The notes below the pieces were generated by a model. It was not told where the DNA came from. It was given only the letters and a program-made list of their open reading frames with translations, and did no database searches. DNA of 62,811 nt, filler included, from Deltaproteobacteria bacterium (GTDB taxonomy: Bacteria; JAEEML01), in the NCBI GenBank assembly GCA_016283195.1. It is 3 parts of 3 records of this genome, joined end to end, with 100 filler letters (N's around TTAATTAATTAA, not from the genome) between each part and the next. Parts side by side here need not be neighbours in the genome. Positions count along the whole stretch, not along the records: positions 24,086 to 52,705 come from JAEEML010000085.1; 2 more parts are not named here. One strand, 5' to 3'. Position 1 is the first letter of the stretch. Each line of letters starts with the position of its first letter. Position numbers and translations under genes: made by a program. Positions 9,982 to 43,875 of the stretch are shown in pieces.

Positions 9982-10128
9982 TTAATTTATATACATAGAA
10001 AACAGTTCAATTTGCCAGCGCTCTTTGTAAAGGTCGGCGATGGTCTTTGCATTCAGATGATGCACGTTGGTAATGAAAGTATACTCATCTTTCTCTTCTT
10101 CATCGTAGAAAAAGACGATCCGCTTCAT
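9982..10128 (-). pseudogene. IS4 family transposase fragment
   Basis: My own translation MKRIVFFYDEEEKDEYTFITNVHHLNAKTIADLYKERWQIELFS contains the IS4 Y-x2-R-W-x-I-E signature. Confidence 0.75.
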
Positions 10129-10970: not shown

Positions 10971-11140
10971 AATGTGTCTATTTTTCCCTGGTAGTTGCTT
11001 GCAAATAAGCTGCTCTGACATGCTAAATTGCAGAACACATTAAAAATATTTTTTAACAAAATACGGAGGTTCTGCAATAATGGCTAAATATAAGGCGTGT
11101 ACAAATGAGTGGAATACTCCGTTTACGGAGGAACGCTCAA

Positions 11141-25961: not shown

Positions 25962-25981
25962 TCCCTTTACCTGCGCTGATT

Positions 25982-26416
25982 CTAGTCGGCTACCTCGGCG
26001 CTGACCCAGCTGCCGTCCTGGTGGCGGGTGAGCAAAATGGCATGGTCAAAAAAGAGGCTGTCGTCATCGTAAAAAAATTCTACGGTTTCCCCGCTGCCGA
26101 TGACAATAGATTCCAGGGAGATGCGCTCCTTAAACTCCTCTGGCGTGATATCGCTTTCGCCTTCTGCCTGCCAGGTGCTGTTTTTTTCGTCTAAAAGTTC
26201 AGCGGTAGCAAAATCTTTGGCGCTAATATCTATCTCGCTGAGCTGGCCAAAAAGATCGTGCAAAGTGGTAAGGCTCTTGTTAAAACTCTCCTCATCTTCG
26301 GCGGAGAGGCAAACATCTACCTCGGCGGCAGCAAAATTTATCTGCCCTAAATACCACTCCATGCGCTCGTCGTACTTAAATTCCCCAAAATCGGCATCTT
26401 TATAAACTTTTTGCAT
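25982..26416 (-). CDS. DUF2262 domain protein
   Basis: LLDEKNSTW....ITPEEFKERISLESI.....FFYDDDSLFFDHAI motif. Confidence 0.75.
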   Translation of the reverse strand: MQKVYKDADFGEFKYDERMEWYLGQINFAAAEVDVCLSAEDEESFNKSLTTLHDLFGQLSEIDISAKDFATAELLDEKNSTWQAEGESDITPEEFKERISLESIVIGSGETVEFFYDDDSLFFDHAILLTRHQDGSWVSAEVAD

Positions 26417-26776: not shown

Positions 26777-27004
26777 ATGCGTATTAGCTATAGACCGCTT
26801 TGGATCAAGCTTGCTGAGAGGGAACTCACGAAACAACAGCTCAGAGAAATGAGCGGTATCAGTACATCAACTCTTGCCAAGCTTGGCAAAGGCGAGAACA
26901 TGACAACGGATGTGCTTCTTAAAATATGTGAGGCGTTGAATTGCAATATTAATGAAATTATAGAAACAGTACCAGATGACAAAGAAAGGTTTAGAAATTA
27001 TTGA
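26777..27004 (+). CDS. Cro/C1-type HTH regulator heading the BREX locus
   Basis: ISYRPLW..L...L....GIS.STLAKLGKGE.....VL.KIC.AL.C.I..I.E pattern. Confidence 0.88.
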   Translation: MRISYRPLWIKLAERELTKQQLREMSGISTSTLAKLGKGENMTTDVLLKICEALNCNINEIIETVPDDKERFRNY

Positions 27005-27029: not shown

Positions 27030-27662
27030 GTGATGCTTCAAAAATCGAACCATGCGCTCAAAGATAATAGCCCATATAGTGCAACGATTACTCGAGAGCA
27101 GTTTCTCTTTTATGAAGTGCGCACGACTGCAAAATTAGTCTGTGAAGGGCTTAGCAGTAATGAGGTTGTAACTAGAATCATGAATGAGAACCTGTTCCAG
27201 TACCCCACGGAAAAATCCGTGAAGAAGATGGCACTGGCCTGTCTCCGGAGGCTGGCGGCGTTAGAGGACAACACGCTGGTACAGGCAATCGCAACACAGC
27301 CAAGTGATGTAGCCAAGCAGATTTGCCTATATGCGATGATGCGCCAATATCGTTTGGTCTGGGATTTTATGCTGACCGTTATCGGGTCCAAGTATAAATT
27401 ATTAGACACCTCGTTTGGTAAGATGGATTTGAATAGTTTTTTCATGCGCTTGCAGGAGCAGGATGACTGGGTCGCCACATGCAGGGAGTCCACGGTTACC
27501 AAGCTAACACACGTATTGCAGAAGATGCGGGTCGAGAATGAGTACCTCGACAGCACAGATGCGAATCACCTGAATCTAGTGCTGATCGCCCCTCTACTGG
27601 AAAACGTCATTCGGGTATCTGGGCAGGAGCTTGCGCTTCCGGCCTTCAACTGCCTGAACTAA
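27030..27662 (+). CDS. brxA: BREX BrxA (DUF1819)
   Basis: YSATITREQFLFYE, NLFQYPTEKS and LVWDFM motifs, plus locus position. Confidence 0.88.
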   Translation: MMLQKSNHALKDNSPYSATITREQFLFYEVRTTAKLVCEGLSSNEVVTRIMNENLFQYPTEKSVKKMALACLRRLAALEDNTLVQAIATQPSDVAKQICLYAMMRQYRLVWDFMLTVIGSKYKLLDTSFGKMDLNSFFMRLQEQDDWVATCRESTVTKLTHVLQKMRVENEYLDSTDANHLNLVLIAPLLENVIRVSGQELALPAFNCLN

Positions 27663-27670
27663 AGGAGGTC

Positions 27671-28234
27671 GTGCACATGAGCAATTTAATGGAACGCCTT
27701 GAGAACCTCCGAGCTCTAATTCAGGAGCCAGAGTTCTTGGAAGGTAAAGGGCTGAGCAACGAAGTAAATATCCGAATTTTCTGTTATGATCCGAAGGAGG
27801 AGATGACCATCAGGCACTTTACGGAAAAGCTGATGACCGATCAAAGCCTGAAATGCCACCTAATAGAGTACAACCTGTACAAGGTATTTCTCTCCATCTG
27901 CGATGATAAGCGGATCACGGATCGGGTGGCACAGCAAGAGGAGAAAAAGGGAAAGCAGTTTGTACTGGATCAGATGAAGCGTATGGCGAACAACAGCGCT
28001 TTTATTCGGAAAATGCAGTACGAGCCACATGAGCATGGAGACGTAATTATGATCACCGGTGTCGGAGAGGCCTTTCCGTTTATCCGAGTTCATGCCCTGC
28101 TGGATGCGATGCAACCATACTTCTCTGATGTTCCGGTGCTGGTGATGTATCCGGGGACTTTCGATGGCCGCTATGTAAAACAGTTTAACAAACTAACGCC
28201 GAATCCGTACTACCGGGCGTTTAACGTGATATAA
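27671..28234 (+). CDS. brxB: BREX BrxB (DUF1788)
   Basis: GKGLSNEV.IRIFCYDP.EE, TGVG.AFPFIRVH, MYPG.FDG and YYRAFN motifs. Confidence 0.92.
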   Translation: MHMSNLMERLENLRALIQEPEFLEGKGLSNEVNIRIFCYDPKEEMTIRHFTEKLMTDQSLKCHLIEYNLYKVFLSICDDKRITDRVAQQEEKKGKQFVLDQMKRMANNSAFIRKMQYEPHEHGDVIMITGVGEAFPFIRVHALLDAMQPYFSDVPVLVMYPGTFDGRYVKQFNKLTPNPYYRAFNVI

Positions 28235-28249: not shown

Positions 28250-31200
28250 ATGAGAATTCAATCGATGTTCAAAGACGACATTAACCGTAAAATCAACGGT
28301 GTCGTCAAAGTCGACCAAGATGAAAGTGGCGTGCTCGTACAGGAACTGAATGAGTATGTCATCACCAGAGAACTGAAGAAGCACTTCATCACCTTTTTCA
28401 ACAACTACATTGAATCCTTCAATGAGGATACTGCCGATATCGGCGTCTGGATCTCCGGCTTCTTCGGAAGTGGTAAATCTCACTTTTTGAAAATGCTGTC
28501 ATATCTTCTGGAAAACAAAGAAGTTCAGGGTATTCGAACGGTGGAACGCTTCCGGACAAAGTTCGCAGATGACCCATCCACTTTTATGCTGATTGACCGC
28601 GCCACCAAGGGCCTGACCCACACCATTCTCTTTAATATCGACATCGAAGGTTCTATCAACAAGGACAAGACTGCCGTGCTGCGTGTTTTTGCCAAGATGT
28701 TCTATAACTACCTAGGCTTCTATGGTGAGAATCTTAAAGTCGCCAAACTGGAGCAGTTTATTGCGAAAAAGGGGAAGACCGAAGAGTTCCGGCGCGTGTT
28801 CGAAGAGAAGAACGGTGCCTCTTGGCTGGAATCCCGCGATGCTTATGCTTTCTTAGAGGATGACATCGTAGCCACTCTACAGGAAGTACTCAGCATGAGC
28901 GAACAGGCCGCCAGCAACTGGTTCAATGGAACTGAAACGGTAGAGACATCCATTGCGCAGCTCGTTTCGGAAATCAAGGAATATGTAGGCAGCAAGCCAG
29001 ATGACTTTCGTCTTCTGTTTATGATCGACGAAGTCGGCCAGTACGTCGGCGGCGATACCGACTTTCTTATCAACCTGCAGTCTCTCGTAGAGAAGATCGG
29101 CAGTGAGTGCATGGGTAAGGTTTGGGTGGTATGCACTGGGCAGGAAGCCATCGACGAGATCATCAAAGCCCGTGAGAACGAGTTCTCACGCATTCAGGCC
29201 CGTTTTAAGACTCGCTTGTCCCTGTCCTCTTCCTCTGCTGATGAAGTCATCCAGAAGCGTATTCTACTGAAGACTGACGAGGCTAAGCAGAAGCTGGAAC
29301 AGGTCTATAGCACTAATGATTCAGTACTACGAAACCTGTTCTCCTTCACCGACGCCATGCTGGATATTAAGGGATATTCCGGTGCGGGCGAGTTTGCGCG
29401 AAACTTCCCGTTTGTGCCATACCAGTTCATTCTGATGCAGAAGGTATTTGCGGAAATCCGGAAACACGGCAATTCCGGCAAACACCTCTCTGAGGGTGAG
29501 CGCTCCATGCTCTCCGGTTTCCAAGAAGCTGCCCAGAAGATCAAGGAGAAGGACGAGTACGCACTGGCTCCGTTCTACCTCTTCTACGATACCGTTCATA
29601 CCTTCCTCGACAGCTCCATTCGCCGCGTGATCGAACGTTGCGAACGAGCAGCAATCGACGGTAACGGCATCGAGCCGCAGGACGTGGACGTACTAAAACT
29701 CTTATATCTTGTCCGCTATGTTGATGATATAAAAGCCAATCTCGACAACATTGTCATCTTAATGGCGGACGATATCCGACTGGACAAGATCACTATGCGT
29801 GAGCAGGTGCGCGGCTCTCTTGATCGCCTCATGAGCCAGAATTATATCGGACGTACCGGCGATACTTACAATTTCCTGACCGACGAGGAGCAGGATATCC
29901 AGCGCGAGATCAAGAACACGCCTGTGGCGACAGCGGACATAGTAAGTCGTATTGCTCAGATGATCTTCGCGGATATCTATACTACTAAGAAGTTCCGCTA
30001 TGGCAAGTACGACTTCTCCTTTGACCAGATGGTGGACGGGCAGGCGGTTGGTGCACTGACAGGCGGCATGATGCTACGTGTCCTGACCGTGGCTACTGAT
30101 CCCACGGAGAAGAATGAACTGCGACTGATGACTGAGTCCAGCGGCAAGGCCGTTGTGGTGCTGGCAGAGAATCCTTACTACGAATCTCTGGAGAGCGCCA
30201 TGAAGATTCGCAAGTATGTTAAGCAGCGCAACATTGCACAGCTCCCGAAGTCCGTGCAGGATATTATTCGCGACCAACAGGACGAGGCTGGTAAATATGA
30301 ACTCACCGCTACTGACGAAGTGAAGAAGGCCATCACCGATGCGGAATTCTATGTGGACGGCGAGCATATAGAAATCAAGGGTAGTGATGCCAAGAGCAAG
30401 ATTGACCAGACTCTTGAGTATCTGGTTGCCCACGTTTACAACGAACTCGGCCTGATTACCAAGTTTGCCGAGACTGATGCCGATATCTACAAAGTTCTCC
30501 ACGGCGAGGAGAATTACCAACCGGGTACCGAGCCCAACCGAGACGCGGCTGCCAAGGTCGAGAAGTATTTGGAGATCCAGTTCAATCAGAATCTCCCGAC
30601 CACCATGTCCGACCTGCAGAATCGGTTTCAGAAAAAGCCCTATGGCTGGCGCGAGATCGACATTGCCTCCGTCGTGGCTATGCTGATCTACGACCAAAAG
30701 GTCACCATTAAGTACGGCGGGGCGACCATACAGCCCAGCGATCCTAAGCTGCCGGATATGCTTAGAAAAAAGAGTGAAATCGGCAAAACTTCCATTTCCA
30801 AGCGTTTGGTTGTATCAATCCAGAAAATCCGAGAGGTCCGGGGCTTCCTGCGCGATTTCTTTAATGAGATGGATGTACCGGATGATGAAGATGGTCTGAT
30901 TGCCCATATCGTAGATAAGTTCAAAGGCGAGCTAGACCACTATACTAAGCTAAATGCCCGGTATAATGGGCACAAGTATCCGGATCAGAACAAGGTCAAA
31001 CAGGCCATAGCGCTGTTTAATGACATTCTCTCCCAACAGAAGGACAACACAGCGCTGATCCAGCGCGTCATCGATCGGGAAGACACTCTCTATATTACGC
31101 GTGATGAATTGCAGGAGGTCGAGGAGTTCTTCAAGACACGTGTCACTCTGTTTGATACTGCTGTGCAGTATGAGCAGGATCTTGCTGTTGACTGTTACTA

Positions 31201-31804
31201 TATAGAAAAGGATGAAGAATCCCTTCAAGCGTTGAACCGGATTCGCTCGATCACCATGATACCCAACGGAGGCAAGTTCCAGTATAATCGCATTCCTGAA
31301 CTCAATGAACTTATGGCGAAGGTGAAAGCCTCACATGATAAGATGTTAAATGCCAAACGCGAGGATATTTTGGAAATCGTTCGCCAGTGCATGAAAGAGA
31401 TTCATAACCTTGCTGGTGACAACAGCACTGCAAGAAATGTTTCGAATACAGCCGATAACTTCTTCACCCAGAAAGAGCAGCAAATTGCTTCTTATCAAAC
31501 ACTGGCATTGTTGGATGGGCTTGTACCTCCGATTTGGCAATATAAAGACGAAGTAGTCAACAAAATCGACGCAATACTTCATCCACAAGTAAAGCGCACA
31601 CCTTCGACAGATAGCAAAGAAACTGCTAAAACGTGTGAAGTTCCTATGCAAACGAAAAAGGAAGTTATTAAAACTATCCACCGTCAGGCGATATTCCCGG
31701 CAAAGACCTTAAAGACTGAGGAAGATATCGATAGTTATGTAGAGATGATTCGCAGCAATATGAAGCAGTTATTGAAGGAATGTGACGGCATAAAGCTGAA
31801 CTAA
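28250..31804 (+). CDS. brxC: BREX P-loop ATPase BrxC
   Basis: INGVVKV, ELNEYVIT, WISGFFGSGKSHFLK, IDEVGQY and PYGWRE motifs. Confidence 0.95.
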   Translation: MRIQSMFKDDINRKINGVVKVDQDESGVLVQELNEYVITRELKKHFITFFNNYIESFNEDTADIGVWISGFFGSGKSHFLKMLSYLLENKEVQGIRTVERFRTKFADDPSTFMLIDRATKGLTHTILFNIDIEGSINKDKTAVLRVFAKMFYNYLGFYGENLKVAKLEQFIAKKGKTEEFRRVFEEKNGASWLESRDAYAFLEDDIVATLQEVLSMSEQAASNWFNGTETVETSIAQLVSEIKEYVGSKPDDFRLLFMIDEVGQYVGGDTDFLINLQSLVEKIGSECMGKVWVVCTGQEAIDEIIKARENEFSRIQARFKTRLSLSSSSADEVIQKRILLKTDEAKQKLEQVYSTNDSVLRNLFSFTDAMLDIKGYSGAGEFARNFPFVPYQFILMQKVFAEIRKHGNSGKHLSEGERSMLSGFQEAAQKIKEKDEYALAPFYLFYDTVHTFLDSSIRRVIERCERAAIDGNGIEPQDVDVLKLLYLVRYVDDIKANLDNIVILMADDIRLDKITMREQVRGSLDRLMSQNYIGRTGDTYNFLTDEEQDIQREIKNTPVATADIVSRIAQMIFADIYTTKKFRYGKYDFSFDQMVDGQAVGALTGGMMLRVLTVATDPTEKNELRLMTESSGKAVVVLAENPYYESLESAMKIRKYVKQRNIAQLPKSVQDIIRDQQDEAGKYELTATDEVKKAITDAEFYVDGEHIEIKGSDAKSKIDQTLEYLVAHVYNELGLITKFAETDADIYKVLHGEENYQPGTEPNRDAAAKVEKYLEIQFNQNLPTTMSDLQNRFQKKPYGWREIDIASVVAMLIYDQKVTIKYGGATIQPSDPKLPDMLRKKSEIGKTSISKRLVVSIQKIREVRGFLRDFFNEMDVPDDEDGLIAHIVDKFKGELDHYTKLNARYNGHKYPDQNKVKQAIALFNDILSQQKDNTALIQRVIDREDTLYITRDELQEVEEFFKTRVTLFDTAVQYEQDLAVDCYYIEKDEESLQALNRIRSITMIPNGGKFQYNRIPELNELMAKVKASHDKMLNAKREDILEIVRQCMKEIHNLAGDNSTARNVSNTADNFFTQKEQQIASYQTLALLDGLVPPIWQYKDEVVNKIDAILHPQVKRTPSTDSKETAKTCEVPMQTKKEVIKTIHRQAIFPAKTLKTEEDIDSYVEMIRSNMKQLLKECDGIKLN

Positions 31805-31815: not shown

Positions 31816-34371
31816 ATGAACAAAAACGCCATCAAGAACTACGCTGTCTGGGCAAGGCGTGAGCTGATCAATCGTGTCTCCCAGCGCGCCATGATGTACG
31901 GAATCACAGCGAAAGATGCCGGTGACACCAATGCGGAGAGCGTGAACGGCCACCTTCTGTCTCAAACAGAGAAGCGGCAGCGGCAGGCGCTGATCCGTAG
32001 CATTCAGGGAAAAGGCTATGAGCAGGTCATAGAGGAAGTGGCCTACACATGGTTCAATCGTTTTGCCGCCTTGCGCTTCATGGAGGTCAACGGTTATCTG
32101 CCGTCTCACATACGCGTATTCACCAACGATGCAGGCGAATTCAAACCACAGATACTCGCCGAAGCCATCCATTTGGAGTTGGATGGCTTGGACATGAAGA
32201 AAGTCTATACGCTGGAGAATGACAACAAGAGCGAGGAGCTGTTCAAATACCTGCTGACTGTACAGTGCAATGCGTTAAACAGCATTCTGCCCGGCATGTT
32301 CCAAAGAATTGACGATTACACCGAGTTGTTGCTCCCCGATTACCTACTTCGCGAGGGTAGCGTCATCGAGCAGTTGGTCACAACGATCCCCGAGGAAGAC
32401 TGGACAGACCAGGTGCAGATCATCGGATGGCTATACCAGTATTATAACAGTGAACCCAAGGACAAAGTCTTTGCCGATCTCAAGAAGAACATCAAGATCA
32501 CCAAGGAAAACATCCCTGCGGCGACGCAGCTCTTTACGCCGGACTGGATTGTGCATTACATGGTCGAGAATAGTCTCGGTCGGCTATGGATAGAGAGAAA
32601 AATAGTTGGAAGTTCTGAGTTGGTAGTTGGTAGCTCTGACTACGAGGAGAAGCGTCAACAGATAGAAAAAACGTTGGTCGAAAAATTCGGCTGGAAATAC
32701 TATCTCCCCGAAGCCAAGCAAGAACCTGAGGTACGGAAAAAACTAATCACTAACCACTACTCACTACCCACTGCTCCGCAGGAGCTCCGCGTCATCGATC
32801 CCTGCTGTGGATCTGGGCACATTCTCTGCGTTCTCTTTGACGTACTCATCCGAATCTATGAGGATTATGGCTATACGTCGCGAGAGGCGGCAACCGAAAT
32901 CGTCGAGAACAACCTATGGGGATTGGACATCGATGAACGAGCGGCACAGCTGTCCTATTTCGCCGTGATGATGAAGGCTCGCCAGTATGACCGACGTTTC
33001 TTTACACGGAATGTGCAGCCCCATGTTTACTCCCCCAAAGGCTATCCTGAAGGATTGGAATACGGTTCACTCATTACCGTGGAATCGCTTGAACCCGCAC
33101 CAGAACAAACCAATCGAGAACTGTTTGATGAAAAATATAGCCATGCCCTAAACCGATGGAACTTCCGACATGCACTCAGCCAGAAGTATCACGTCGTAGT
33201 GACGAATCCGCCGTATATGGGCAATAGTGGTATGGGGGCAAAACTTGCGGAATTTGTAAAGAGTCAATTTCCTGATAGCAAAAGCGATTTATTTGCCTGC
33301 TTTATTGAACGATGCCGCAATATGATCAACGAAAGTGGCTATCAAGCCATGATTACGCAACATGCCTGGATGTTCTTGTCGAGTTTTGAAAACTTGCGTA
33401 AAAAGATGCAGACAATTGATACGATAAATATGGCCCACCTTGGTGCAAGAGCATTTGAAGAAATTGGTGGTGAGGTTGTTCAAACAACTACATTTGTATT
33501 AAGAAATATATATACTAAAGATTACAAAAGTACGTATTGCCGACTGATTGACCCCACGACACAACAAGGAAAAGAAGATATGTTTTTGTCGGGGGAGAAC
33601 CGCTATATTGCCAATCAGTCCAACTTCTCCAAAATCCCGGGGTCGCCTGTGGCGTATTGGGTGAGTGAGAAAATGCTTACTTGTTTTATTCAAAGTCAAA
33701 GTCTTGGAAAAGTCTTTAAGTTGCTTGCAGGTACTTCTACGGGCGATAATACCCTTTATCAGCGTTTTTGGTATGAGGTTAATTATAATAATATTTCATT
33801 ATATCCAGATAACAGTAAAAGATGGTTTCCGTGTAACACGGGGGGCAGTTTCTATAAATATGCTTCAAATAGCACCACTGTGATTGATTGGGAAAATGAT
33901 GGATGTCGAATTCGTAATCATATAAATGGTAAGGGAAAAATTGGTTCAGCAATTCGTAATAGAGAGTATTATTTTCGTTCTGGTATTACTTGGAACAAAC
34001 TGAGTTCTTCTAACTTTGGAGTTCGATTCGTTCCAGAAGGATATATTTCAGATGATACTGCAAGAATGATTATCTCTCGCTCATTAGAACAGCAATATTA
34101 TTTGTTAGCTTTTTTATGTTCTAATGTCTGCCAGAACTTTTTGGCAATGTTATCACCTACTTTGAGCTTTACAAATTCTGAGTTGGAACGATTGCCATTC
34201 TTTGAATCCAATAATCAAGGGGTGTATTCAAACATCATTAACTTATCTAAAGATAATCATTTCCAGAGTTTAAATGATGTTTCTTCCTTTGAAACGTCGT
34301 GGGATTTTTCCCGTCATCCGTTGTTGCCTAAGCGAGATTCCAACAAAGGAGAGGAGAACGGAAATGCCTGA
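31816..34371 (+). CDS. pglX: BREX adenine methyltransferase PglX, N-terminal part (MTase motifs + TRD)
   Basis: EEVAYTWFNR, PAATQLFTPDWIV, DPCCGSGH and VTNPPY motifs. Ends just after SFETSWDF.RHPL. Confidence 0.92.
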   Translation: MNKNAIKNYAVWARRELINRVSQRAMMYGITAKDAGDTNAESVNGHLLSQTEKRQRQALIRSIQGKGYEQVIEEVAYTWFNRFAALRFMEVNGYLPSHIRVFTNDAGEFKPQILAEAIHLELDGLDMKKVYTLENDNKSEELFKYLLTVQCNALNSILPGMFQRIDDYTELLLPDYLLREGSVIEQLVTTIPEEDWTDQVQIIGWLYQYYNSEPKDKVFADLKKNIKITKENIPAATQLFTPDWIVHYMVENSLGRLWIERKIVGSSELVVGSSDYEEKRQQIEKTLVEKFGWKYYLPEAKQEPEVRKKLITNHYSLPTAPQELRVIDPCCGSGHILCVLFDVLIRIYEDYGYTSREAATEIVENNLWGLDIDERAAQLSYFAVMMKARQYDRRFFTRNVQPHVYSPKGYPEGLEYGSLITVESLEPAPEQTNRELFDEKYSHALNRWNFRHALSQKYHVVVTNPPYMGNSGMGAKLAEFVKSQFPDSKSDLFACFIERCRNMINESGYQAMITQHAWMFLSSFENLRKKMQTIDTINMAHLGARAFEEIGGEVVQTTTFVLRNIYTKDYKSTYCRLIDPTTQQGKEDMFLSGENRYIANQSNFSKIPGSPVAYWVSEKMLTCFIQSQSLGKVFKLLAGTSTGDNTLYQRFWYEVNYNNISLYPDNSKRWFPCNTGGSFYKYASNSTTVIDWENDGCRIRNHINGKGKIGSAIRNREYYFRSGITWNKLSSSNFGVRFVPEGYISDDTARMIISRSLEQQYYLLAFLCSNVCQNFLAMLSPTLSFTNSELERLPFFESNNQGVYSNIINLSKDNHFQSLNDVSSFETSWDFSRHPLLPKRDSNKGEENGNA

Positions 34372-34472
34372 AAGTATGAGATCTGAACAACGTTATGTAA
34401 CTTTTCCAACGGCTTGTGGGGAAAATTCAACAATCGCTCATCAAACAGAAGCTATGGTAAAGGAGTGAACAA

Positions 34473-35744
34473 ATGGCGATCATCGAAGGCATTCGGATCA
34501 AAAATTACAGGGCTTTGCATGACATCACCATGGGAAGGCTTTGGAATCGACAGAATGAAAAACCGCTAAAAGCATTGACCGTAGTCATCGGTAAAAATGG
34601 TGCTGGAAAAAGCACGCTGTTCGATGCGTTTGGATTCCTCGCAGACTGTATGAAACTCGGTGTGGAAGAAGCGTGTGATGCTCGCGGACGTGGGGGATAT
34701 GATAAAATTTATTCTCAAGGTGCAGAAGGGCCAATGGAATTTGAAGTGTACTATAAGGAAAATAGTGCATCTCGGCCAATCACATACGAGATTGCTATTG
34801 GTCTGGATGAGCAAGAACGCCCAATTATTCTAAAGGAACGGCTCAGACAACGTCGTAAAGGTCAAAAACGTGGCTGGCCTTTTTCTTTTCTTATCCTTGA
34901 TAAGGGAAAGGGGTTGGCATGGAAAGGTGAATATGAAGGCCATCAGTTTGATGATACCAGTCTGTTTGATTACGTTGCATATATGCAGAATCATCAGGAA
35001 GAATCCAATCAAACAGAGGTCGTTGAGCTGACAGATATCAGCAAACCAGGCATTACCACTCTGGGAGCCCTTAAACAGCATCCGAGAATCTCTGCATTTC
35101 GAAGCTTTCTTGAAAATTGGTATTTATGTTATTTTACACCCGATGCAGCTCGCAGCCTTCCATTGTCTGGACCTCAAAAGCATTTAAACCTGCATGGCGA
35201 CAATCTTGGGAATGTCGTGCAATTCATGGAACGAGAGCATGGAAAGCGCCTTCATCGGATACTCGACAGTATTTCGCAAAAGATTCCAGGTCTGCAAAAG
35301 ATCGATACTGAAAAAACGAGTGATGGAAGATTATTGTTAAGATTCTTTAACCAGGGATTTGAACGTCCGTTTTATGCACAGCAGATTTCCGATGGCACAC
35401 TCAAGGTCTTTGCTTATATGTTGTTGCTTGAAGATCCATCTCCCGCTTCGTTGCTTTGTATTGAAGAACCAGAGAATGGTATTTATCACAAACTACTCAA
35501 CACGCTTGTCGAAGAATTTAGGGCATTTGTATCCAATAGCAAAACGCAGTCGCAGGTGATCGTGACGACGCATCAGCCTTATTTTTTGGATGCGGTCGAA
35601 CCAGATGAGGTTTGGGTCCTGGAAAAGCAATCCGATGGTTTTAGTACGATCACAAGGGCGGATTCCATCGAGTTCGTTCAGAATATGTTTGAAGAAGGAC
35701 AACCGCTTGGTAGCCTCTGGTACAGCGATTATTTCGATAAATAA
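34473..35744 (+). CDS. ABC-type ATPase (AAA_21/AAA_15; AriA-like) nested in pglX
   Basis: GKNGAGKST, ISDGTLK signature, CIEEPENG and VTTHQP motifs. Confidence 0.85.
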   Translation: MAIIEGIRIKNYRALHDITMGRLWNRQNEKPLKALTVVIGKNGAGKSTLFDAFGFLADCMKLGVEEACDARGRGGYDKIYSQGAEGPMEFEVYYKENSASRPITYEIAIGLDEQERPIILKERLRQRRKGQKRGWPFSFLILDKGKGLAWKGEYEGHQFDDTSLFDYVAYMQNHQEESNQTEVVELTDISKPGITTLGALKQHPRISAFRSFLENWYLCYFTPDAARSLPLSGPQKHLNLHGDNLGNVVQFMEREHGKRLHRILDSISQKIPGLQKIDTEKTSDGRLLLRFFNQGFERPFYAQQISDGTLKVFAYMLLLEDPSPASLLCIEEPENGIYHKLLNTLVEEFRAFVSNSKTQSQVIVTTHQPYFLDAVEPDEVWVLEKQSDGFSTITRADSIEFVQNMFEEGQPLGSLWYSDYFDK

Positions 35745-35756
35745 TGGAGTTGAAGC

Positions 35757-36428
35757 ATGCATTTTGAATTTCTCGTCGAAGGACAATGCGAGCTGACGGC
35801 ATTATCTATCCTGATGTCAAAGATACTAGGGCCCTATCAGGAACCACACACCTGGAAGATTCATAAGCATCGGGGAATCGGCAAATTTCCAGAAGATCCA
35901 GCCCAAAAGCCATCAGCTGGCGATGGGTCTTTGCTTCATAATTTATCTTCCAAACTGAGAGCTTACGGTCATGAAGAGAAAAAAGATCTTGTCGTCGTGG
36001 TTCTCGTTGATTTAGACGATCGTCCGGATTGCCGTGTATTTAAACAGGAATTGCTTCATCAGCTGGATTTCTGCGTAAATAAGCCGAATACTTTATTTCG
36101 TATCGCAATCGAAGAACTGGAAGCATGGTATTTAGGTGACCGAAAAGCCATTGCACAGGCTTATCCCAATGCTCGTTTCGAAATCCTGAATCATTATACA
36201 CAAGACTGCATTTGTGGCACCTGGGAACTGCTTGCCAAAGTTGTAAATGATAGAGATGTGCAGGAATTGTTGGCATCAAAGAGACGTTCAACACGACTGC
36301 TTGAAGCGAAAGTGCAATGGGCAAAAAAGATAACGCCTTGGATGGATATTGAACAGAATCTATCACCGAGTTTTGTTGTATTCAGAGATGGGGTTAGACG
36401 GCTTGCAGGAAATCACGTTGGTAGTTGA
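35757..36428 (+). CDS. DUF4276-like TOPRIM-fold partner of the ABC ATPase
   Basis: FLVEG, VLVDLD, IAIEELEAWYLGD and N.SPSF..F motifs. Confidence 0.75.
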   Translation: MHFEFLVEGQCELTALSILMSKILGPYQEPHTWKIHKHRGIGKFPEDPAQKPSAGDGSLLHNLSSKLRAYGHEEKKDLVVVVLVDLDDRPDCRVFKQELLHQLDFCVNKPNTLFRIAIEELEAWYLGDRKAIAQAYPNARFEILNHYTQDCICGTWELLAKVVNDRDVQELLASKRRSTRLLEAKVQWAKKITPWMDIEQNLSPSFVVFRDGVRRLAGNHVGS

Positions 36429-36469
36429 TCGTAACACTTGGAAAACATGGATTTTAAGGAGAATCACGC

Positions 36470-37456
36470 ATGGGTTACTTGATTTCTGATCAATATAATG
36501 CCTGGGCACAGGAATGCGAGAATCGTTTCAACCAGCTCAAAGCCAATGAAGAAGAACTCAACCGCATCTTTATCGATATCTATGGCTTGCAGGACGAACT
36601 CACACCCGAAGTCGAAGATAAGGACGTGACGGTCCGCAAGGCGGATTTGCAGCGAGAGATTAAAAGCCTGATTTCGTATGCAGTGGGCTGCATGTTCGGA
36701 AGGTATTCGCTGGATAAGGATGGTTTGATTTTCGCTGGTGGTGAGTTTAGTGATCAGTGGTTAGTGGTGAATCCGGATCGAAGCCAAAAGCTGGATGCCC
36801 ATAAGAGTCTTTGCTACTTGCGCGAGGTTGCCGAGAATGCGGAAATCACGGATTTGATGCGCACTCATTTCGGGGTCGATGCAGATAACATCATACCTGT
36901 GACAGACGATGAATACTTCGAGGACGACATTGTGAGCCGTTTTGTGAAGTTCGTTGAAGTCGCTTATAGCAAAGATACGCTTGAAGAAAACCTGTCGTTT
37001 ATTGCAAATGCGCTTGGTGGCAAAGGTTCCTCGCGTGAAGTTATTCGCAAGTACTTCCTCAACGATTTCTTTGAGGATCACTGCAAAATCTATCAGAAAC
37101 GTCCGATTTACTGGCTATTTGACAGCGGCAAGAAGAATGGCTTCAAGTGCCTGATTTACATGCATCGTTATCAACCAGACACCATTGCCCGCATCCGCAC
37201 CGACTATGTTCACGAACAGCAGAGCCGCTACGACACCGCCATCGACAACATCAACTCGCAGCTCAACAGCCTAACGGGTTCCAACCTCGTCAAGCATAAA
37301 AAGCAGCTCGCCAAGCTCACCGCCCAAAAAGACGAACTCCACGCCTACGAAGAAAAGATCCACCACCTCGCCGACCAGATGATCAAAATCGATTTGGATG
37401 ATGGCGTCAAGGTGAACTACGCGAAGTTTGACAGTGTATTGGCTAAGGTGAAGTAA
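36470..37456 (+). CDS. pglX: PglX C-terminal part, with its own RBS and ATG
   Basis: [49 protein letters not shown] and [11 protein letters not shown] motifs. TAAGGAG precedes the ATG. Confidence 0.92.
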
Positions 37457-37474: not shown

Positions 37475-39130
37475 ATGGACAGACCACAAAAAGAAACTTT
37501 GACTATAGAATTTAAGGGTGATCGTTCGCCGCTTAAACTAGATGATTTGTATCAGGCTATCGTAGCTATGGCCAACACAGATGGTGGCGTTATTTATTTG
37601 GGCATTGAGGATGATGGAACGGTCACAGGCTTACATCCTCAACACTCAAATATCGTAGAGATAGCAGCCAAAATTCAGACGCATACACACCCTTCAATTA
37701 CCCCGAATTTAAAGATTGAAAAATTTGATAATAAGCCTGTCTTGGTTATTGAGGTCATATCCTCCCGTAATCTCGTAATGACATCGGATGGTCGCTATTT
37801 GCGCAGACGGTTAAAACACGATGGTTTGCCGGAAGTCGTAGCGATGTTACCAAATGAAGTAATCCAACGTTTCGCCAGCATTCAGCAATTCGATCCTTCA
37901 TCACAAGTCGTCGAGCAAGTGCGTTCTGATGTGGCTTTGAATCCGTTAGAAAGAGAACGGTTACGTAGCATGATTCAAACTTATCATGGAGATTCGTCTC
38001 TATTGAGTCTTTCCAATGATGATTTGGATAAAGCGCTTGAACTGAGTCATGAATATGATGGCATTTTATATCCGACGATTACGGGGCTGCTTCTGATTGG
38101 ACATGAACAATATATAAAAAAGTATGTCCCTGGGCATGAAGTGTTATTTCAAGTGTTAAGTGGCGAAGATGTTTTGTCAAATTCTCCATCGATGCGTGGT
38201 TCTTTACTGTCAATATTCGAAACTGTAAACGTGTTGTTTCAATCCAGAGTAACTGAGAGTGAAATTCAAGTAGGACTATTCCGTGTACCCATTCCGAATT
38301 ATGAAAAAGAAGCATTTAGAGAAGGATTCGTTAATGCACTTGTTCATCGAGATTATTATCGAATGGGGGCAATTCATGTGCAGCTGCAGAAACACAATCT
38401 GATTATTTCTAATCCTGGTGGCTTTCTTGAAGGGGTTACACCTGATAATATTTTAACCGTAGCACCATCCCCTCGTAATCGATTATTGGCTGAAGCGGTA
38501 AAGCGTATTGGGCTAGCAGAACGCACAGGACGTGGTGTCGATAAGATTTATAGTTCTTTACTTCGAAGTGGACATGACATTCCCGATTATTCGGACAGCG
38601 ACAATACTAGGGTCGTTTTACGAATGAGTAGTGCGGAAGTGGATAAAGAATTTGTCAGAATGCTCGTTGTAGAGGAACAAAAAATTAATCAGTTAATGCC
38701 GATAAATGCTCTGATCATATTAAATGCGTTAAAATATGAACGCAGGCTTTCTTTATCTGATTTTGCAAAGAGAATTCAGCGTAGAGAAAGCGAGGCAAAA
38801 GAAACCGTAGAATGGCTTGTTGAAATTGGTATGGTTGAGGGCATAGGTAATAAAGCAGCTCGTCGTTACATGCTGAGTTCAAACGTCTATGCTCTTTCTG
38901 GCAATGCTGCAGGTTACTCTAGGCAACGAGGACTAACGACGGAAGAAGAAATAGCACAAATCAAACGAGTGCTGAATGAAACCTCCACAATTACTCGTGC
39001 AAAGGTGGTTGAAATCTGTTCGTGTTCTGAGAACCACGCATCATATCTTCTAAAAACCTTAGCAGATAACGGTATTATTGAACTTGTTAGGCATGGACGT
39101 AATACATATTATTTAAAAAAAACTACGTAA
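37475..39130 (+). CDS. AlbA_2/Schlafen-like + HATPase_c_4 + HTH protein
   Basis: IEFK, AMANTDGG.IYLGIEDDG, REGFVNALVHRDY, SNPGG, PRN.LLAE and ERTGRGVD motifs. Confidence 0.85.
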   Translation: MDRPQKETLTIEFKGDRSPLKLDDLYQAIVAMANTDGGVIYLGIEDDGTVTGLHPQHSNIVEIAAKIQTHTHPSITPNLKIEKFDNKPVLVIEVISSRNLVMTSDGRYLRRRLKHDGLPEVVAMLPNEVIQRFASIQQFDPSSQVVEQVRSDVALNPLERERLRSMIQTYHGDSSLLSLSNDDLDKALELSHEYDGILYPTITGLLLIGHEQYIKKYVPGHEVLFQVLSGEDVLSNSPSMRGSLLSIFETVNVLFQSRVTESEIQVGLFRVPIPNYEKEAFREGFVNALVHRDYYRMGAIHVQLQKHNLIISNPGGFLEGVTPDNILTVAPSPRNRLLAEAVKRIGLAERTGRGVDKIYSSLLRSGHDIPDYSDSDNTRVVLRMSSAEVDKEFVRMLVVEEQKINQLMPINALIILNALKYERRLSLSDFAKRIQRRESEAKETVEWLVEIGMVEGIGNKAARRYMLSSNVYALSGNAAGYSRQRGLTTEEEIAQIKRVLNETSTITRAKVVEICSCSENHASYLLKTLADNGIIELVRHGRNTYYLKKTT

Positions 39131-39157: not shown

Positions 39158-39268
39158 AGTCTGAGAATAGTCTGAGAAAAAGTCTGAGAATGTGAGTGTA
39201 AGTCATTGAAAAATCGGCATATTGCCAGTGGAAAGTCTGAGAAAGAGTCTGAGAAAGAGTCTGAGAAA
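39158..39268 (+). repeat. Six AGTCTGAGAA copies in two triplets upstream of pglZ
   Basis: Copies at 39158, 39169, 39181, 39234, 39246 and 39258. Confidence 0.8.
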
Positions 39269-39277
39269 GGTAACCTC

Positions 39278-41863
39278 ATGGACATCGACACAATTATCCA
39301 AGACCTGAATCGCCGATTTGTGGCACCACTGCCAGAGTTCTATAAACGCAGGATCGTCGTTTGGATCGACGAAGATGCGGAGTTTTCGGACAAGCTGGAT
39401 AAAATTACAGTGAATGGTGCGAAGGTCATCGCCCTCACCGGCGCCAACAACTTTTATGTGAAGAAGCTGTTAGCAGTGGACGACCAGAACAGCAATTATC
39501 TTGTATACCGTCCGTTTGCATACGAATCCGACGAGGATAACTGGTTGCTGGATATTGAACTTTATGGCGAGGAGTTTCGGGCTGATCTGGTATCCATGTG
39601 GATGGACGAGATGGGCCTGCCACAGACGCCAACGCTTCGCCATTGTATTAAGCAGTTCCGCAAGTTTTTCAATGCCCAGGCTCGTCGAAACAAAATATCT
39701 TCGCAGACAACCACGCCCGGTCAGCTGCATGTATCCATCATGGCTGTGTTAGCTGGTCTAAAAGATGTGAAACCAAACGCAATTCTCAAAGCTGTGTTGA
39801 AAGCGGGGCTGGATAAGAACAACAATCCCGTCTATGCAGAGTTTGTGAACTACGGTGTAGATGAGATATTTTGGCGCATGGTAAAGCAGGGCACCGGATA
39901 CCAGGGCATGGAACTTGCCCAGCTGGCCACACACCTACTGCTGACAGCTTCCACCCGGACTATGCGTCAGGAATTTCTTGCCGGACTCCAAACGTTCATC
40001 TCCTCCGCGCATCAACCGTACTGCTATGACTTCGTGTCCGACTGGATGCACAGTGAAGATGCCGGGGACATCTATGCTATCGCGGAGCACGTGGAGAACG
40101 AGCTGGAACTTCAGCAACAGTTTATGAAACTGCAGGTAGCCGATCTCGTGGATACGGAGACTTTCCCGTGTATCAACGAGGTTATCCTCAAGAAGCTGAT
40201 GACCGAGATTAGTAACTATATCATCAACGTGGACACGATTACCCAGACCGTGGAGAAGCGCCGTATCTGCGTTTGGTACGAAGACGTGAAGAACTACTAC
40301 GAAGGCATTCTGCAGGTAGCCAAAATGCAGGCCTTCTTCAAGGAACATTCTGCCGGATTCCACACAGTGGAGTCTGCGAAGATTTGGAAGGAGTACACGA
40401 AGGAATACTACATCATGGATACCTATTACAGGGAGTTCCTTAAATGCTATTCCGAAAGCCTGAAATACTACCATAAAGAGCTCTCTGACCTCTTTACCCA
40501 CGTGATGGAAAAAGTAGAGGGTCTGTATGTGACATGGTTTCTAGGTCAGCTGGGGCAGAACTGGAGTGACGCCTGTTCCGAAGAGCTCCAGAAGTATGGC
40601 CGCATTCTGGAAGTGGATCAACAGGTGGATTTTTACCGTCAAAAGGTAGCCTCTTCCGATAGTAAGGTCTACGTTATCATCTCTGATGCCATGCGCTTTG
40701 AGGTGGCAGCATCCCTTGCTGAGCAGTTGCAGAGGGAAACGCAAGCACAAGTTAACCTGAAATCCATGCAGGGCATCTTTCCAACCATCACTAAGTTTGG
40801 CATGGCTGCGCTCCTTCCACATAAAGCTTTATCAGTTGAACTGAAAAGCGGAAAGACCGCTGGGCTGGTTGTGCTGGCTGATGGGCAGTCCACTGAGGCT
40901 CCGAACCGGGACAAGCTCCTGAAGACTGCTGATTCAGCCAGTGTTGCTTTGAAGTATAAAGATATTATCGGGATGAAGCGTGCCGACCGGCAGGCACTCA
41001 TCAAAGGTATGAACGTTGTGTACATCTACCATGATACCATCGACGCAGCTGGTCATGCCGAGAATGATGTGTTCAGAGCATGCGAGGAGGCCATTGAAGA
41101 ACTGAAGAACATGGTGCGTATCATCACCAACGAGTGGGGCGGTGCGTACATCCTCATCACTTCTGATCACGGCTTTTTGTACACCGATAGTCCGTTGACT
41201 GAGGATGACAAGGTGGACAAGACCACCGAATCGGAACAGGATGTGGAAATCGATCGCCGCTACGCCATCATGAAGCGCGGTGCACAGCCCCAGTATCTGC
41301 TGCCTGTAAAGCTCTTGGGTGGTGACACGCTATATGATGCCTTTGCTCCCAGAGAGAATATCCGCATCAAAAAAAAAGGCGGTGGTCTGAACTTTGTGCA
41401 CGGAGGCATTAGCCTGCAGGAGATGGTAGTGCCAGTTATCGAATATCATTTTCTGCGGAACCAAAGCAGCGAATACAAAAAGAACCGTAGCAAGTACGAC
41501 ACGAAGCCCGTGGAGATTGCTCTGCTCTCCGCAAGTAGGAAGATCTCCAACATGATCTTCTCCCTGAGCTTCTATCAGAAGGAACCGGTTAGCTACAACC
41601 GTGAGAAGTCTACCTTTCAGCTGTACTTCACAGATAGCACCGGCAAGCCTGTCAGCGACGCTGCGACTATCATTGCGGACAAGACCTCAGACAACGCGCA
41701 GGAGCGCACCTTCCGCTGCAGCTTCAATCTGAAACAGCTGAAATACAGTAATATGGAACAGTATTATCTTGTCACCACGGACGAAAACAGGAAAATTGTC
41801 TCCCGCGAGGAATTCCAGATCGACATCGCGTTTGCGGTAGATGAATTCGACTTTTTCAACTAA
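39278..41863 (+). CDS. pglZ: BREX PglZ (alkaline-phosphatase fold)
   Basis: YKRRIVVW.D, VIISDAMRFEVA, FPTITKFGMAALLP, ITSDHGFLY and FVHGGISLQE motifs. ATG at 39278. Confidence 0.94.
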   Translation: MDIDTIIQDLNRRFVAPLPEFYKRRIVVWIDEDAEFSDKLDKITVNGAKVIALTGANNFYVKKLLAVDDQNSNYLVYRPFAYESDEDNWLLDIELYGEEFRADLVSMWMDEMGLPQTPTLRHCIKQFRKFFNAQARRNKISSQTTTPGQLHVSIMAVLAGLKDVKPNAILKAVLKAGLDKNNNPVYAEFVNYGVDEIFWRMVKQGTGYQGMELAQLATHLLLTASTRTMRQEFLAGLQTFISSAHQPYCYDFVSDWMHSEDAGDIYAIAEHVENELELQQQFMKLQVADLVDTETFPCINEVILKKLMTEISNYIINVDTITQTVEKRRICVWYEDVKNYYEGILQVAKMQAFFKEHSAGFHTVESAKIWKEYTKEYYIMDTYYREFLKCYSESLKYYHKELSDLFTHVMEKVEGLYVTWFLGQLGQNWSDACSEELQKYGRILEVDQQVDFYRQKVASSDSKVYVIISDAMRFEVAASLAEQLQRETQAQVNLKSMQGIFPTITKFGMAALLPHKALSVELKSGKTAGLVVLADGQSTEAPNRDKLLKTADSASVALKYKDIIGMKRADRQALIKGMNVVYIYHDTIDAAGHAENDVFRACEEAIEELKNMVRIITNEWGGAYILITSDHGFLYTDSPLTEDDKVDKTTESEQDVEIDRRYAIMKRGAQPQYLLPVKLLGGDTLYDAFAPRENIRIKKKGGGLNFVHGGISLQEMVVPVIEYHFLRNQSSEYKKNRSKYDTKPVEIALLSASRKISNMIFSLSFYQKEPVSYNREKSTFQLYFTDSTGKPVSDAATIIADKTSDNAQERTFRCSFNLKQLKYSNMEQYYLVTTDENRKIVSREEFQIDIAFAVDEFDFFN

Positions 41864-42036
41864 ATCCTCAATGTGCCTGCAAAATATGGCAATTGTTTCC
41901 TCGCTCAACTTATAAGAGTTCTCCCCAGTTATTTACCAATCATGGTCACTTTGCACTACAAAATTTAAGCGAAATGGAGTATGAGAGTGGCGAAGCTGGC
42001 AGCAGGGGTTTCTGCTGAGCTTAAAAGGAGTATCTT

Positions 42037-43875
42037 ATGGAAGATCAGGAAATTGCCGAAAAAGTTCGTTCTCTCTCACCCGAGGCTCTCGCCCTTTACA
42101 AAGTGCGTCACAGTTTGGCTCACGTTTTGGCCGATGCGGTAACTCAGCTCTACCCGGGCACGGCCTGCGGTTTTGGCCCGCCGATAGATAGCGGTTTTTA
42201 TTATGATTTTGATTTGCCGGTAAAATTAGAGCAGGAAGATCTGGCAGCCATTGAAAAGAAAATGCGCCAGATAATCAGCGGCAATTTTGAATTTACGCGC
42301 GAAGATTACACCCCGGCCGAGGCCATTCCGGTTATCGAAAAAATGGGCCAGTCTTACAAATTGGAGCTCGCCAAAGAATTAGAGGAAAAACAGGTAAAAT
42401 CCATCTCGCTCTATAAGCACAATAATTTTACCGATGTCTGCGAAGGGCCCCATGTAAATAATACCAAAGAGCTGCAAAAAGTGGCTTTTCAGCTGGACAG
42501 CATTGCCGGCTCATACTGGCGCGGCAGCGAAAAAAACAAAATGCTTACGCGTATTTATGCTCTCGCCTTTAACACCAAAGAGGAGCTCAAGGAGTTTATC
42601 CGCCTGCGCGAAGAGGCTAAAGCCCGCGACCACCGCAAATTGGGCCAGGAGCTCGATATTTTCCACATTGACAGCGATATCGGCGTGGGCCTGCCGCTCT
42701 GGCTGCCCAACGGCACGGTGCTCCGCGAGGAGCTGGAAAAGCTGGCCAAAGAGTATGAATTTAAATATGGCTACTCCCGCGTTGCTACTCCGGATATCGC
42801 CCGCGAGCAGCTCTATTACCGCTCCGGCCACCTGCCATATTATAAAAAGTCGATGTTTCCGCCCATGACGCTCATCGAGACCGACGACAACGGCGAAGAG
42901 ACTTCGCGCGAGACTTTCTACCTCCGCCCCATGAACTGCCCGCACCACCACATGATTTTTAAGGCGCGGCCCCATTCTTACCGCGATTTGCCGCTGCGCC
43001 TCACCGAGTATGGCCATGATTACCGCTTTGAAAAATCGGGCCAGGTGGCCGGGCTTTTGCGCGTTCGCGGCATGTGCATGAATGATGCCCACATTTATGT
43101 GCCCGAAGAGCTCGCTAAAGAAGAGTTTATTCGCGTGATGCAGCTCCACATGGATTATTATAAGCTTTTGGAATTTAGCTCCTGGCGCATGCGCCTCTCG
43201 CTGCCCAGCGAGGATAACAGCAAATATCTGCCAAAGCCCGACCTCTGGAAGCGGGCTATCAATGTTTGTGTTGAAGGCATGAAGGATCTCGGGCTCGATT
43301 ATGAAGCGGTGGAGGGCGAAGCGGCCTTCTACGGCCCCAAAATCGATGTGCAGGTGAAAAATGTCATCGGCCGCGAAGAGACAGCTTCCACCAACCAGGT
43401 GGACCCCATGGCCGCTCAGGAAGACCGCTTTGACATGACCTATGTGGGTAAAGACGGCGGCCTCCATCGCCCCTTTGTTTTGCACCGCGCCCCGCTGGGC
43501 ACGCATGAGCGCTTTATCGCCTTTTTGATTGAGCACTATGCCGGCGCTTTCCCCACCTGGTTGGCTCCGGTTCAGGTGGCCATTTTGCCGGTTACCAGCG
43601 AGCAGCTCCCCTATGCCGAAAAAGTGCGTAAAGCCCTCTTTGATAACTTTGTGCGCGTGGAAGTGGATGATTCCAACGATACTTTGGGCAAGAAAATTCG
43701 CCGCGCCACCACTAGGAAGATTCCCATTAGCCTCATCATCGGCCAGCAGGAAGCGACAGACGGCAAAGTGACTATCCGCCGCTACACCAAACAGCAGGAA
43801 AAGGTGGCTATGCCGCTCGATACCTTTGTTACTGAGCTCATGGCCGAAATCAAAGAGCGCCGCTGGGTGCGCTAA
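42037..43875 (+). CDS. thrS: Threonine--tRNA ligase
   Basis: RHSLAHVLA, D.CEGPHV, RDHRKLG, LRPMNCPHH, AFYGPKID and HRAPLG motifs. Confidence 0.97.
   Translation: MEDQEIAEKVRSLSPEALALYKVRHSLAHVLADAVTQLYPGTACGFGPPIDSGFYYDFDLPVKLEQEDLAAIEKKMRQIISGNFEFTREDYTPAEAIPVIEKMGQSYKLELAKELEEKQVKSISLYKHNNFTDVCEGPHVNNTKELQKVAFQLDSIAGSYWRGSEKNKMLTRIYALAFNTKEELKEFIRLREEAKARDHRKLGQELDIFHIDSDIGVGLPLWLPNGTVLREELEKLAKEYEFKYGYSRVATPDIAREQLYYRSGHLPYYKKSMFPPMTLIETDDNGEETSRETFYLRPMNCPHHHMIFKARPHSYRDLPLRLTEYGHDYRFEKSGQVAGLLRVRGMCMNDAHIYVPEELAKEEFIRVMQLHMDYYKLLEFSSWRMRLSLPSEDNSKYLPKPDLWKRAINVCVEGMKDLGLDYEAVEGEAAFYGPKIDVQVKNVIGREETASTNQVDPMAAQEDRFDMTYVGKDGGLHRPFVLHRAPLGTHERFIAFLIEHYAGAFPTWLAPVQVAILPVTSEQLPYAEKVRKALFDNFVRVEVDDSNDTLGKKIRRATTRKIPISLIIGQQEATDGKVTIRRYTKQQEKVAMPLDTFVTELMAEIKERRWVR

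Follow-up and report, generated by a model that had tools for sequence, protein, structure and literature searches.

A PglX encoded by two genes with an embedded HEC-01 pair in a BREX type 1-like operon of a Deltaproteobacteria bacterium

PglX is the source of the sequence specificity of BREX (bacteriophage exclusion) systems and is needed for both methylation and restriction. The protein is described as having a target recognition domain (residues 662-849), after which come a pair of long spacer helices (850-960) and a C-terminal region that is conserved (961-1225), and six salt bridges connect it to the DNA mimic Ocr, five of them through K1070, K1097, K1110, K1201 and D1213 and the sixth in the methyltransferase domain (Went et al. 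2024, PMC11341690). A PglX encoded by two coding sequences, the first for the N-terminus and the middle and the second for the C-terminus, has been described for the BREX type 1 system of Brevibacterium casei (Milman et al. 2023, PMC9881135). There the end of the variable region is where the break falls, and the split is tied to programmed inversions of the first coding sequence. Here we describe a pglX gene in two parts, with two foreign genes between them, in a stretch of 62,811 nt (hereafter the window) made of three joined parts of the genome of a Deltaproteobacteria bacterium (GCA_016283195.1). The operon in question lies in positions 24,086-52,705, which come from JAEEML010000085.1.

The two foreign genes belong to a family of modules that has also been described. 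HEC-01 was defined as an ABC ATPase and TOPRIM pair embedded in Hma systems (Payne et al. 2024, bioRxiv 10.1101/2024.01.29.577857), that is as an embedded candidate, and modules of an OLD-type ABC ATPase with a TOPRIM protein have been recorded inside BREX loci (10.1101/2024.01.29.577857; PMC12839542). PARIS, which consists of the ABC ATPase AriA and the DUF4435 TOPRIM protein AriB (PMC11464382), is likewise a two-gene system of an OLD-type ABC ATPase with a TOPRIM-fold partner. DUF4276, the family of the second foreign gene, has been assigned to the Toprim superfamily and called a homologue of Mad4 (PMC12065111).

The locus probably encodes a functional PglX made from two genes, a member of a widespread natural lineage in which the gap between the genes is a slot for varying accessory defence genes, here HEC-01.

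The two parts of pglX

The N and C parts of pglX are two intact open reading frames (ORFs) without internal stops, and the ATPase and DUF4276 genes lie between them. The original prediction had described the locus in this way, as two translatable halves around an intact co-oriented pair, and this description stands. The region is organised as follows:

31816-34371, + strand: pglX N part, 851 aa (PADLOC PglX 1.8e-295)
34473-35744, + strand: HEC-01A, OLD-family ABC ATPase (AAA_21), 423 aa (Pfam AAA_21 4.6e-45; PADLOC HEC-01A 5e-187)
35757-36428, + strand: HEC-01B, DUF4276 TOPRIM-like putative nuclease, 223 aa (Pfam DUF4276 7e-13; PADLOC HEC-01B 3.1e-81)
36456-36472, + strand: Shine-Dalgarno motif AAGGAG, 8-nt spacer and ATG of the pglX C part
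36470-37456, + strand: pglX C part, 328 aa (PADLOC PglX 8.1e-132, model positions 878-1170 of 1174)

Against the PADLOC model of PglX (PDLC02521, 1174 positions) the N part matches from position 1 and the C part covers positions 878-1170, so nothing substantial has been lost between the halves and the two ORFs amount to one complete PglX. The N part holds the N-terminal helical domain, the N6-adenine methyltransferase, the target recognition domain, the first spacer helix and the motif SWDFxxHPL, and it aligns with Salmonella PglX (8c45) up to residue 888 (E 5.8e-181). The second spacer helix and the conserved C-terminal region are found in the C part, which aligns with residues 948-976 and 993-1195 of E. 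coli BrxX (8zek, E 5.6e-62) and also matches 9ewz and 8c45. By extrapolation the break corresponds to about residues 889-906 of the Salmonella protein, within the turn that links the spacer helices. Five of the six Ocr salt-bridge residues given for Salmonella PglX in PMC11341690 map to the stretch that equals the C half.

The N part had been said to stop just after the SWDFxxHPL motif, which is roughly right, since the stop lies 14 codons past ..SWDFSRHPLL. The C part does restart at 36470 with its own ribosome-binding site, the ATG being 8 nt 3' of AAGGAG, and an in-frame TAA at 36455-36457 makes this ATG the first possible start. Contiguous relatives have, after SWDFxxHPL, a linker that varies in length and sequence, with conserved motifs on both sides. 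As a separate observation, two contiguous PglX proteins of 1432 and 1449 aa carry about 250 extra in-frame residues at the inter-helix loop (L015, 6599-7383; L078, 7244-8001), and no Pfam family was found for these inserts.

Both halves are conserved. No internal stop was found in 8 N parts or in 10 C parts. Motif I (D328, P329, C330, G332, S333 and G334) and NPPY (N464-Y467) do not vary among 30 N parts including that of the window, and 91 columns are invariant in an alignment of 32 C parts. Nonsynonymous differences per site (pN) are 0.19-0.25 for the C part and 0.29-0.42 for the N part against saturated synonymous values (pS) of 0.75-0.84, at which dS is not computable and only pN can be set against pS.

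PglX would be made as two polypeptides, PglX-N of 851 aa and PglX-C of 328 aa, and the halves would reassemble through the packing of the two spacer helices and the HPL motif. A complex predicted for residues 612-851 of the N part and 1-328 of the C part scored an ipSAE of 0.91 (0.90-0.91 in three runs), a mark reached by 58 of 80 solved complexes and by 2 of 110 mismatched pairs, and the best of three controls scored 0.00. The runs have at least 86% of their contacts in common, with a partner pLDDT of at least 91, and the modelled contacts join residues 803-838 of the N part (first spacer helix and SWDFxxHPL) to residues 3-56 of the C part. As a modelling result the score indicates that the PglX fold still accommodates both halves; it is no demonstration of binding, and likeness to the solved single-chain PglX may explain it.

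Recurrence of the break and cargo in the gap

A scan with the C part, taking one genome per species, yielded 560 relatives, and the analysis used the best 80 loci. They hold 82 C-part matches: 70 contiguous, 8 split and 4 without an N part in view (L026, L037, L047 and L079). Both halves are separate intact ORFs in seven of the 80 loci (L001, L003, L004, L005, L006, L022 and L053). Each of the seven has an N part whose stop directly follows SWDFxxHPL[ILV] and a C part that begins with M[GA]xLI[AS].. like that of the window. These loci come from animal-gut metagenome-assembled genomes (MAGs) labelled Pseudomonadota, Myxococcota, Planctomycetota and Bacillota. Stand-alone C parts that start as in the window are found in L037 and as a second copy in L044.

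Moreover, a large protein collection yielded at least 7992 candidates of 180-574 aa at E <= 1e-20. Among the best 120 of these short homologues, which were inspected, 79 have the motif RF..LK.NE at index 18, which equals the start residue of the window. Many homologues with this start are 295 or 320-340 aa long, and the contigs that carry them reach 1.8 Mb in some cases. The closest four of the 120 are 81-88% identical, 328-337 aa long, and begin like the C part of the window. The locus had been taken originally for an insertion into a normally contiguous gene, and this has to be replaced by membership of a recurring two-gene PglX with varying cargo.

Other arrangements of pglX were observed in the same set of loci. 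L044 (2089-8966) has a complete PglX, then DUF3990 and nucleotidyltransferase/HEPN modules, and then the stand-alone C part with the split-type start. L030 (5352-12408) has a tandem pair of full-length pglX genes before pglZ. L047 (7674-8921) has the N part of BrxA fused to the C part of PglX in one ORF among housekeeping genes, apparently what a deletion has left of a BREX operon.

The contents of the gap were catalogued for the seven split loci:

L001: no cargo, gap of 150 nt
L005: no cargo, gap of 95 nt
L003: DUF2971 / PDC-S31 protein
L006 and L022: DUF559 endonuclease-like protein
L004: 23S_rRNA_IVP protein and HEC-01A/B
L053: DUF4760 protein, two proteins without family, and a Schlafen AlbA_2/HATPase_c_4 protein

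Since the cargo differs among the split loci, the gap behaves as a slot. The Schlafen-like gene found inside the slot in L053 is placed after the C part in the window.

Positions 34473-37455 of the window form one collinear match of 3 kb with L004 6035-8971 (71% nt identity). The encoded proteins of the two loci are 80% (ATPase), 78% (DUF4276 protein) and 71% (C part) identical; brxC, the pglX N part and pglZ are merely 45-50% identical, and the left junction differs despite the common HEC-01 cargo. Between pglX-C and pglZ (9118-11086) L004 has a second ABC ATPase (AAA_15, 431 aa) with a 220-aa protein without family, so that one BREX operon holds two OLD-type modules.

A closer relative is a 983-nt contig from a gut metagenome of another study (X3), which covers 34284-34334 (the end of the N part) and 34467-35220 (ATPase). 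Its ATPase stretch has 59 differences in 754 positions (92% identical), and 40 other letters replace the 132 nt of the window at 34335-34466. X5 has a similar loose end. With X3 and L004, the arrangement persists at about 8% and about 29% nt divergence. A 28.6-kb metagenome contig (L081) is 100% identical over 13,269 nt, possibly comes from the same data and was not counted as independent. The 101-nt spacer between the N part and the ATPase gene includes one small ORF:

34364-34468, + strand: ORF of 34 codons with the strong Shine-Dalgarno motif AAAGGAGAGGAG upstream, probably not a gene

This ORF overlaps the stop of the N part and terminates 4 nt 5' of the ATPase start. It is missing from the relatives X3 and X5, and for this reason it was not counted as a gene.

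Judged by sequence, the cargo of the window is the HEC-01 of PADLOC, an OLD-type ABC ATPase with a TOPRIM-like protein, and not PARIS proper. The matches to HEC-01A (5e-187) and HEC-01B (3.1e-81) are both full length and the genes are 12 nt apart; the same ATPase matches AriA at 1.7e-42 and mad3 at 1.5e-21. Walker A (GKNGAGKST), Walker B (LLCIEEPE) and the H-loop (TTHQP) are intact. For the partner, Pfam gave DUF4276 only (maximum E 0.01), with no DUF4435, and AriB is not among the 12 PADLOC matches at E <= 0.001. The PARIS-like module of the original prediction was therefore correct in its architecture, which pairs an ABC ATPase with a TOPRIM-like protein, and incorrect in its family.

In the DUF4276 protein E8, D85, D87, E119, E120 and E122 are invariant in 7 sequences. 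A fold model (mean pLDDT 75.8) gave no match at E <= 0.001 in a Foldseek search of the PDB, the best E values being 4e-3 to 3e-2, and four of the top five entries are C-terminal regions of OLD proteins. In VIA-align the model superposes on the C-terminal TOPRIM of OLD with Z 8.0-8.6 (root mean square deviation 4.1-4.4 over 164-167 residues), near the background of about 7-8, and on AriB (8ux9_A) with Z 7.0 (5.1 over 169 residues).

Nine other metagenome loci carry ATPases that are 59-67% identical to that of the window and none has pglX nearby, the flanks being sufficient in L082, L084 and L089 only and six of the nine being contigs of less than 4.3 kb. As relatives of the ATPase are seen without pglX, HEC-01 can be regarded as an autonomous module placed in the slot. 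A comparison of the cargo DNA with a plasmid collection (distant mode) gave two weak matches, 66-68% over 52-59% of the query, with no notable context. By analogy with OLD, Gabija and PARIS, the HEC-01 ATPase might sense a phage cue and license the nuclease, and this would provide a second layer of defence co-expressed with BREX.

The surrounding operon and the competing explanations

The remaining genes of the operon, and a possible regulator in front of it, are the following:

26777-27004, + strand: small Cro/C1-type helix-turn-helix gene, possible regulator, just 5' of brxA (Pfam HTH_26 7.1e-19)
27030-27662, + strand: brxA (Pfam BrxA 2.9e-55; PADLOC BrxA 1.9e-61)
27671-28234, + strand: brxB (Pfam BrxB 6.8e-37; PADLOC 4.4e-95)
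28250-31804, + strand: brxC (PADLOC BrxC-PglY E=0, 1280 bits, full length)
37475-39130, + strand: accessory gene with Schlafen AlbA_2, HATPase_c_4 and a C-terminal winged helix-turn-helix (Pfam SLFN_AlbA_2 1.7e-19, HATPase_c_4 9.6e-15)
39206-41863, + strand: pglZ (Pfam PglZ 2e-53; PADLOC 9.3e-276)

By Pfam and PADLOC the order is that of a BREX type 1-like operon, brxA-brxB-brxC-pglX(N)-HEC-01A-HEC-01B-pglX(C)-Schlafen-like gene-pglZ, in which all five core genes of BREX type 1 have matches in both, pglX as two ORFs. All genes are co-oriented on the + strand with spacings of 12-101 nt, and the ATPase gene, the DUF4276 gene and the pglX C part each have their own Shine-Dalgarno motif. The Schlafen-like gene occupies the classical slot between pglX and pglZ. 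The prediction of a two-chain PglX with a nested ABC-ATPase and TOPRIM-like pair in one co-oriented operon is supported. Just upstream of the operon the - strand encodes, at 24426-26416, a 511-aa AAA_5 ATPase and a 144-aa DUF2262 protein, which may be another defence pair of the same island. A protein with the Fibrobacter succinogenes major paralogous domain (Fib_succ_major, 1.2e-28) is encoded at 21220-21966, also on the - strand.

The backbone of the operon, comprising pglZ and the stretch from brxA through the first 780 nt of pglX, is 75-82% identical at the nt level to loci with a contiguous pglX (L061, L066, L015, L043 and L068). These backbone relatives are labelled Lachnospiraceae or Clostridia, and the best named relatives of the threonyl-tRNA synthetase (ThrRS) of the host are MAGs labelled Deltaproteobacteria (72%). 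This contrast suggests horizontal acquisition of the operon, unless some of the MAG labels are in error. The MAGs G001-G005 were considered as close kin of the host and were ruled out, their ThrRS being 39-44% identical.

Several observations weigh against a functional two-gene PglX belonging to one lineage. The 14-residue tail after HPLL in the window, which has about the length of the linker in the backbone relatives, is absent from all seven other split loci, so the left junction of the window is its own. No brxL was found in the 62.8-kb window (tblastn with BrxL of L061, best E 0.99), and a distant copy is possible; pglZ is followed directly by thrS (41864-43875, with thrS at 42037-43875), and in the backbone relatives L061, L066 and L022, and also in L003, brxL comes right after pglZ. 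Without a detected brxL the BREX system of the window may restrict weakly or not at all. The window-type split, with the M[GA]xLI start, was not found in an even sample of 401 genomes (G006 family), which has a contiguous pglX at 33 of 41 places. Short or broken frames occur there at five places (four of 329-353 aa and one of 409 aa), comprising one clean two-ORF split, one probable split, one orphan and two decayed genes, too few to give a frequency of two-gene forms. Because synonymous sites are saturated, the purifying selection on the halves cannot be dated to after the split. HEC-01 is reported in 10.1101/2024.01.29.577857 to give no protection against the phages assayed. Finally, on the C-part tree the split forms do not group as a single clade, and what we call one lineage may be several origins, or the outcome of recombination.

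This tree is a quick one of 81 C parts, with 42 of 77 forks open and with the first C-part residues, the columns of the trait itself, included in the alignment. Mapped onto it, the split label has to change 7 times, with starred branches forcing at least 4 of the changes; a count this low is reached by only 2 of 500 shuffles. The window forms a pair with the contiguous L002 (SH-aLRT 97). Over C-part residues 1-20, nine of the ten loci most like the window among the 80 are split or stand-alone, at 50-65% identity, the tenth being L008 (50%) and the other loci printed standing at 20-45%. In later segments of the C part the split and contiguous classes are not separated. This fits either repeated origins under the same constraint or a junction spread through recombination. 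A rather doubtful extension of the second option is that the inter-helix loop serves specifically as a slot for cargo that recombination exchanges, and that the detached PglX-C could be the partner monitored by HEC-01 here. The conserved coding motifs that flank the loop, on the SWDFxxHPL side and on the C-part side, would act as homology arms and carry cassettes of a stop, accessory genes, a ribosome-binding site and a start between unrelated BREX operons. PglX-C, with most of the surface that contacts Ocr, would then be translated directly behind the cargo.

A related proposal, compatible with a functional two-gene PglX, is a guard of the PARIS type, in which HEC-01 would sense Ocr-like DNA mimics or the detached state of PglX-C and its nuclease would abort the infection. 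The OLD-type ABC and TOPRIM-like architecture agrees with it, as do the position of the DUF4276 gene directly 5' of pglX-C in the window and in L004, and the location of most Ocr salt-bridge residues of Salmonella PglX in the equivalent of the C half (PMC11341690); PARIS-like modules in BREX loci have moreover been proposed as a counter to Ocr (survey in PMC12839542). However, the partner is a DUF4276 and not a DUF4435 protein and matches no AriB model, the published assay of HEC-01 gave no defence (10.1101/2024.01.29.577857), the nine related ATPase loci show no pglX (with adequate flanks in the three named above), and most split loci hold quite different cargo. We consider such a guard unlikely.

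Simple inactivation, by which a mobile two-gene cassette would have killed pglX and left the ORFs as decaying remnants, is quite unlikely. With no brxL found in the window the six-gene set is not complete there, and decayed pieces of pglX do exist elsewhere (L094, L095 and the BrxA-PglX fusion of L047). However, both halves are full length with invariant motifs, and the C part has its own Shine-Dalgarno and an ATG placed precisely where the helix begins. Intact halves separated at this break are present in seven other loci of several phyla, the same start residue is shared by the 79 short homologues among the best 120, and the junction is retained in X3 (92% identical) and in L004 (71% nt identical).

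The original prediction also offered an excisable on/off switch, in which recombination between two copies of AAGGAGA would remove 2110 bp and restore a single-chain pglX. The copies are indeed at 34346 and 36456, both at codon position 2, so that the deletion keeps one frame and the joined frame stays open. Nevertheless, the heptamer is the Shine-Dalgarno consensus and is no commoner than chance allows (7.7 +/- 2.95 copies expected in the window and 13 present, with 7 of 100 shuffles reaching 13 and a shared phase having odds of 1 in 3), which agrees with the caution, given at the same time, that the copies may just be ribosome-binding sites. Moreover, no recombinase gene was found within or next to the cargo, and no longer direct or inverted repeat flanks it. 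The left copy is missing in X3, the left junction of L004 is different, and the seven other split loci end the N part before any such tail. No contig joint equal to the 2110-bp deletion was found among the contigs of the X runs, which leave large parts without cover and cannot show absence. A switch of this kind is very improbable.

A chimeric join at one or both junctions is hardly credible, for even if the window apparently comes from an uncultured organism and the exact fragments in the runs X1 and X2 (depth about 2.5) bridge neither 34371 nor 36470, L081 is identical over 13,269 nt, though maybe from the same data, an X1 contig covers 34415-34600 across the ATPase start, the X3 contig from another study, a relative at 92%, spans from the N part into the ATPase, and L004 is collinear over the ATPase, the DUF4276 protein and the C part.

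Comparison with described systems

A functional PglX of two genes would have consequences for the study of BREX. The natural two-chain form suggests that the C-terminal region can work as a separate subunit, and it offers a ready-made route to dissect this region, of which variants have been described that unlink restriction from modification (review PMC12707154). Pipelines that label such loci as broken pglX, and counts that require one PglX match, are probably wrong. Should recombination exchange the slot, BREX systems of distant phyla would have a compact means of shuffling second-layer defences among them.

To judge from the literature search, in which supplements may hold more, no split PglX is described beyond that of PMC9881135. 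The word "split" is absent from the main text of PMC12839542 and of the preprint of Payne et al., and "pglX" from that of the preprint; their supplements may list cases. Compared with B. casei, the window holds no pglX duplicate, inverted repeat or recombinase, and because there is no duplicate or inverted repeat a phase-variation shufflon of the B. casei type is not seen in it.

With regard to the cargo, the window differs from PARIS in its partner, which is DUF4276 and not DUF4435, and PADLOC favours HEC-01 by a wide margin. The likeness to Mad3/Mad4 of MADS, as described in PMC12065111, is far weaker than that to HEC-01 (mad3 1.5e-21), and no other mad genes were seen.

Embedded genes described for BREX, DISARM, Hma and Type I restriction-modification systems are cargo located between the genes of the system (10.1101/2024.01.29.577857; PMC12839542), whereas the cargo of the window is located inside pglX. 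The embedding of accessory defence genes is thereby extended from between genes to inside a gene. Finally, the single-chain PglX/BrxX proteins of type 1 (Salmonella 8c45/8q56; E. coli HS 8zek and 9ewz) have the same domain order and the same motifs as the protein described here; in contrast to them, PglX in the window corresponds to two polypeptides, the interruption falling between the spacer helices, and two foreign genes separate the coding parts.

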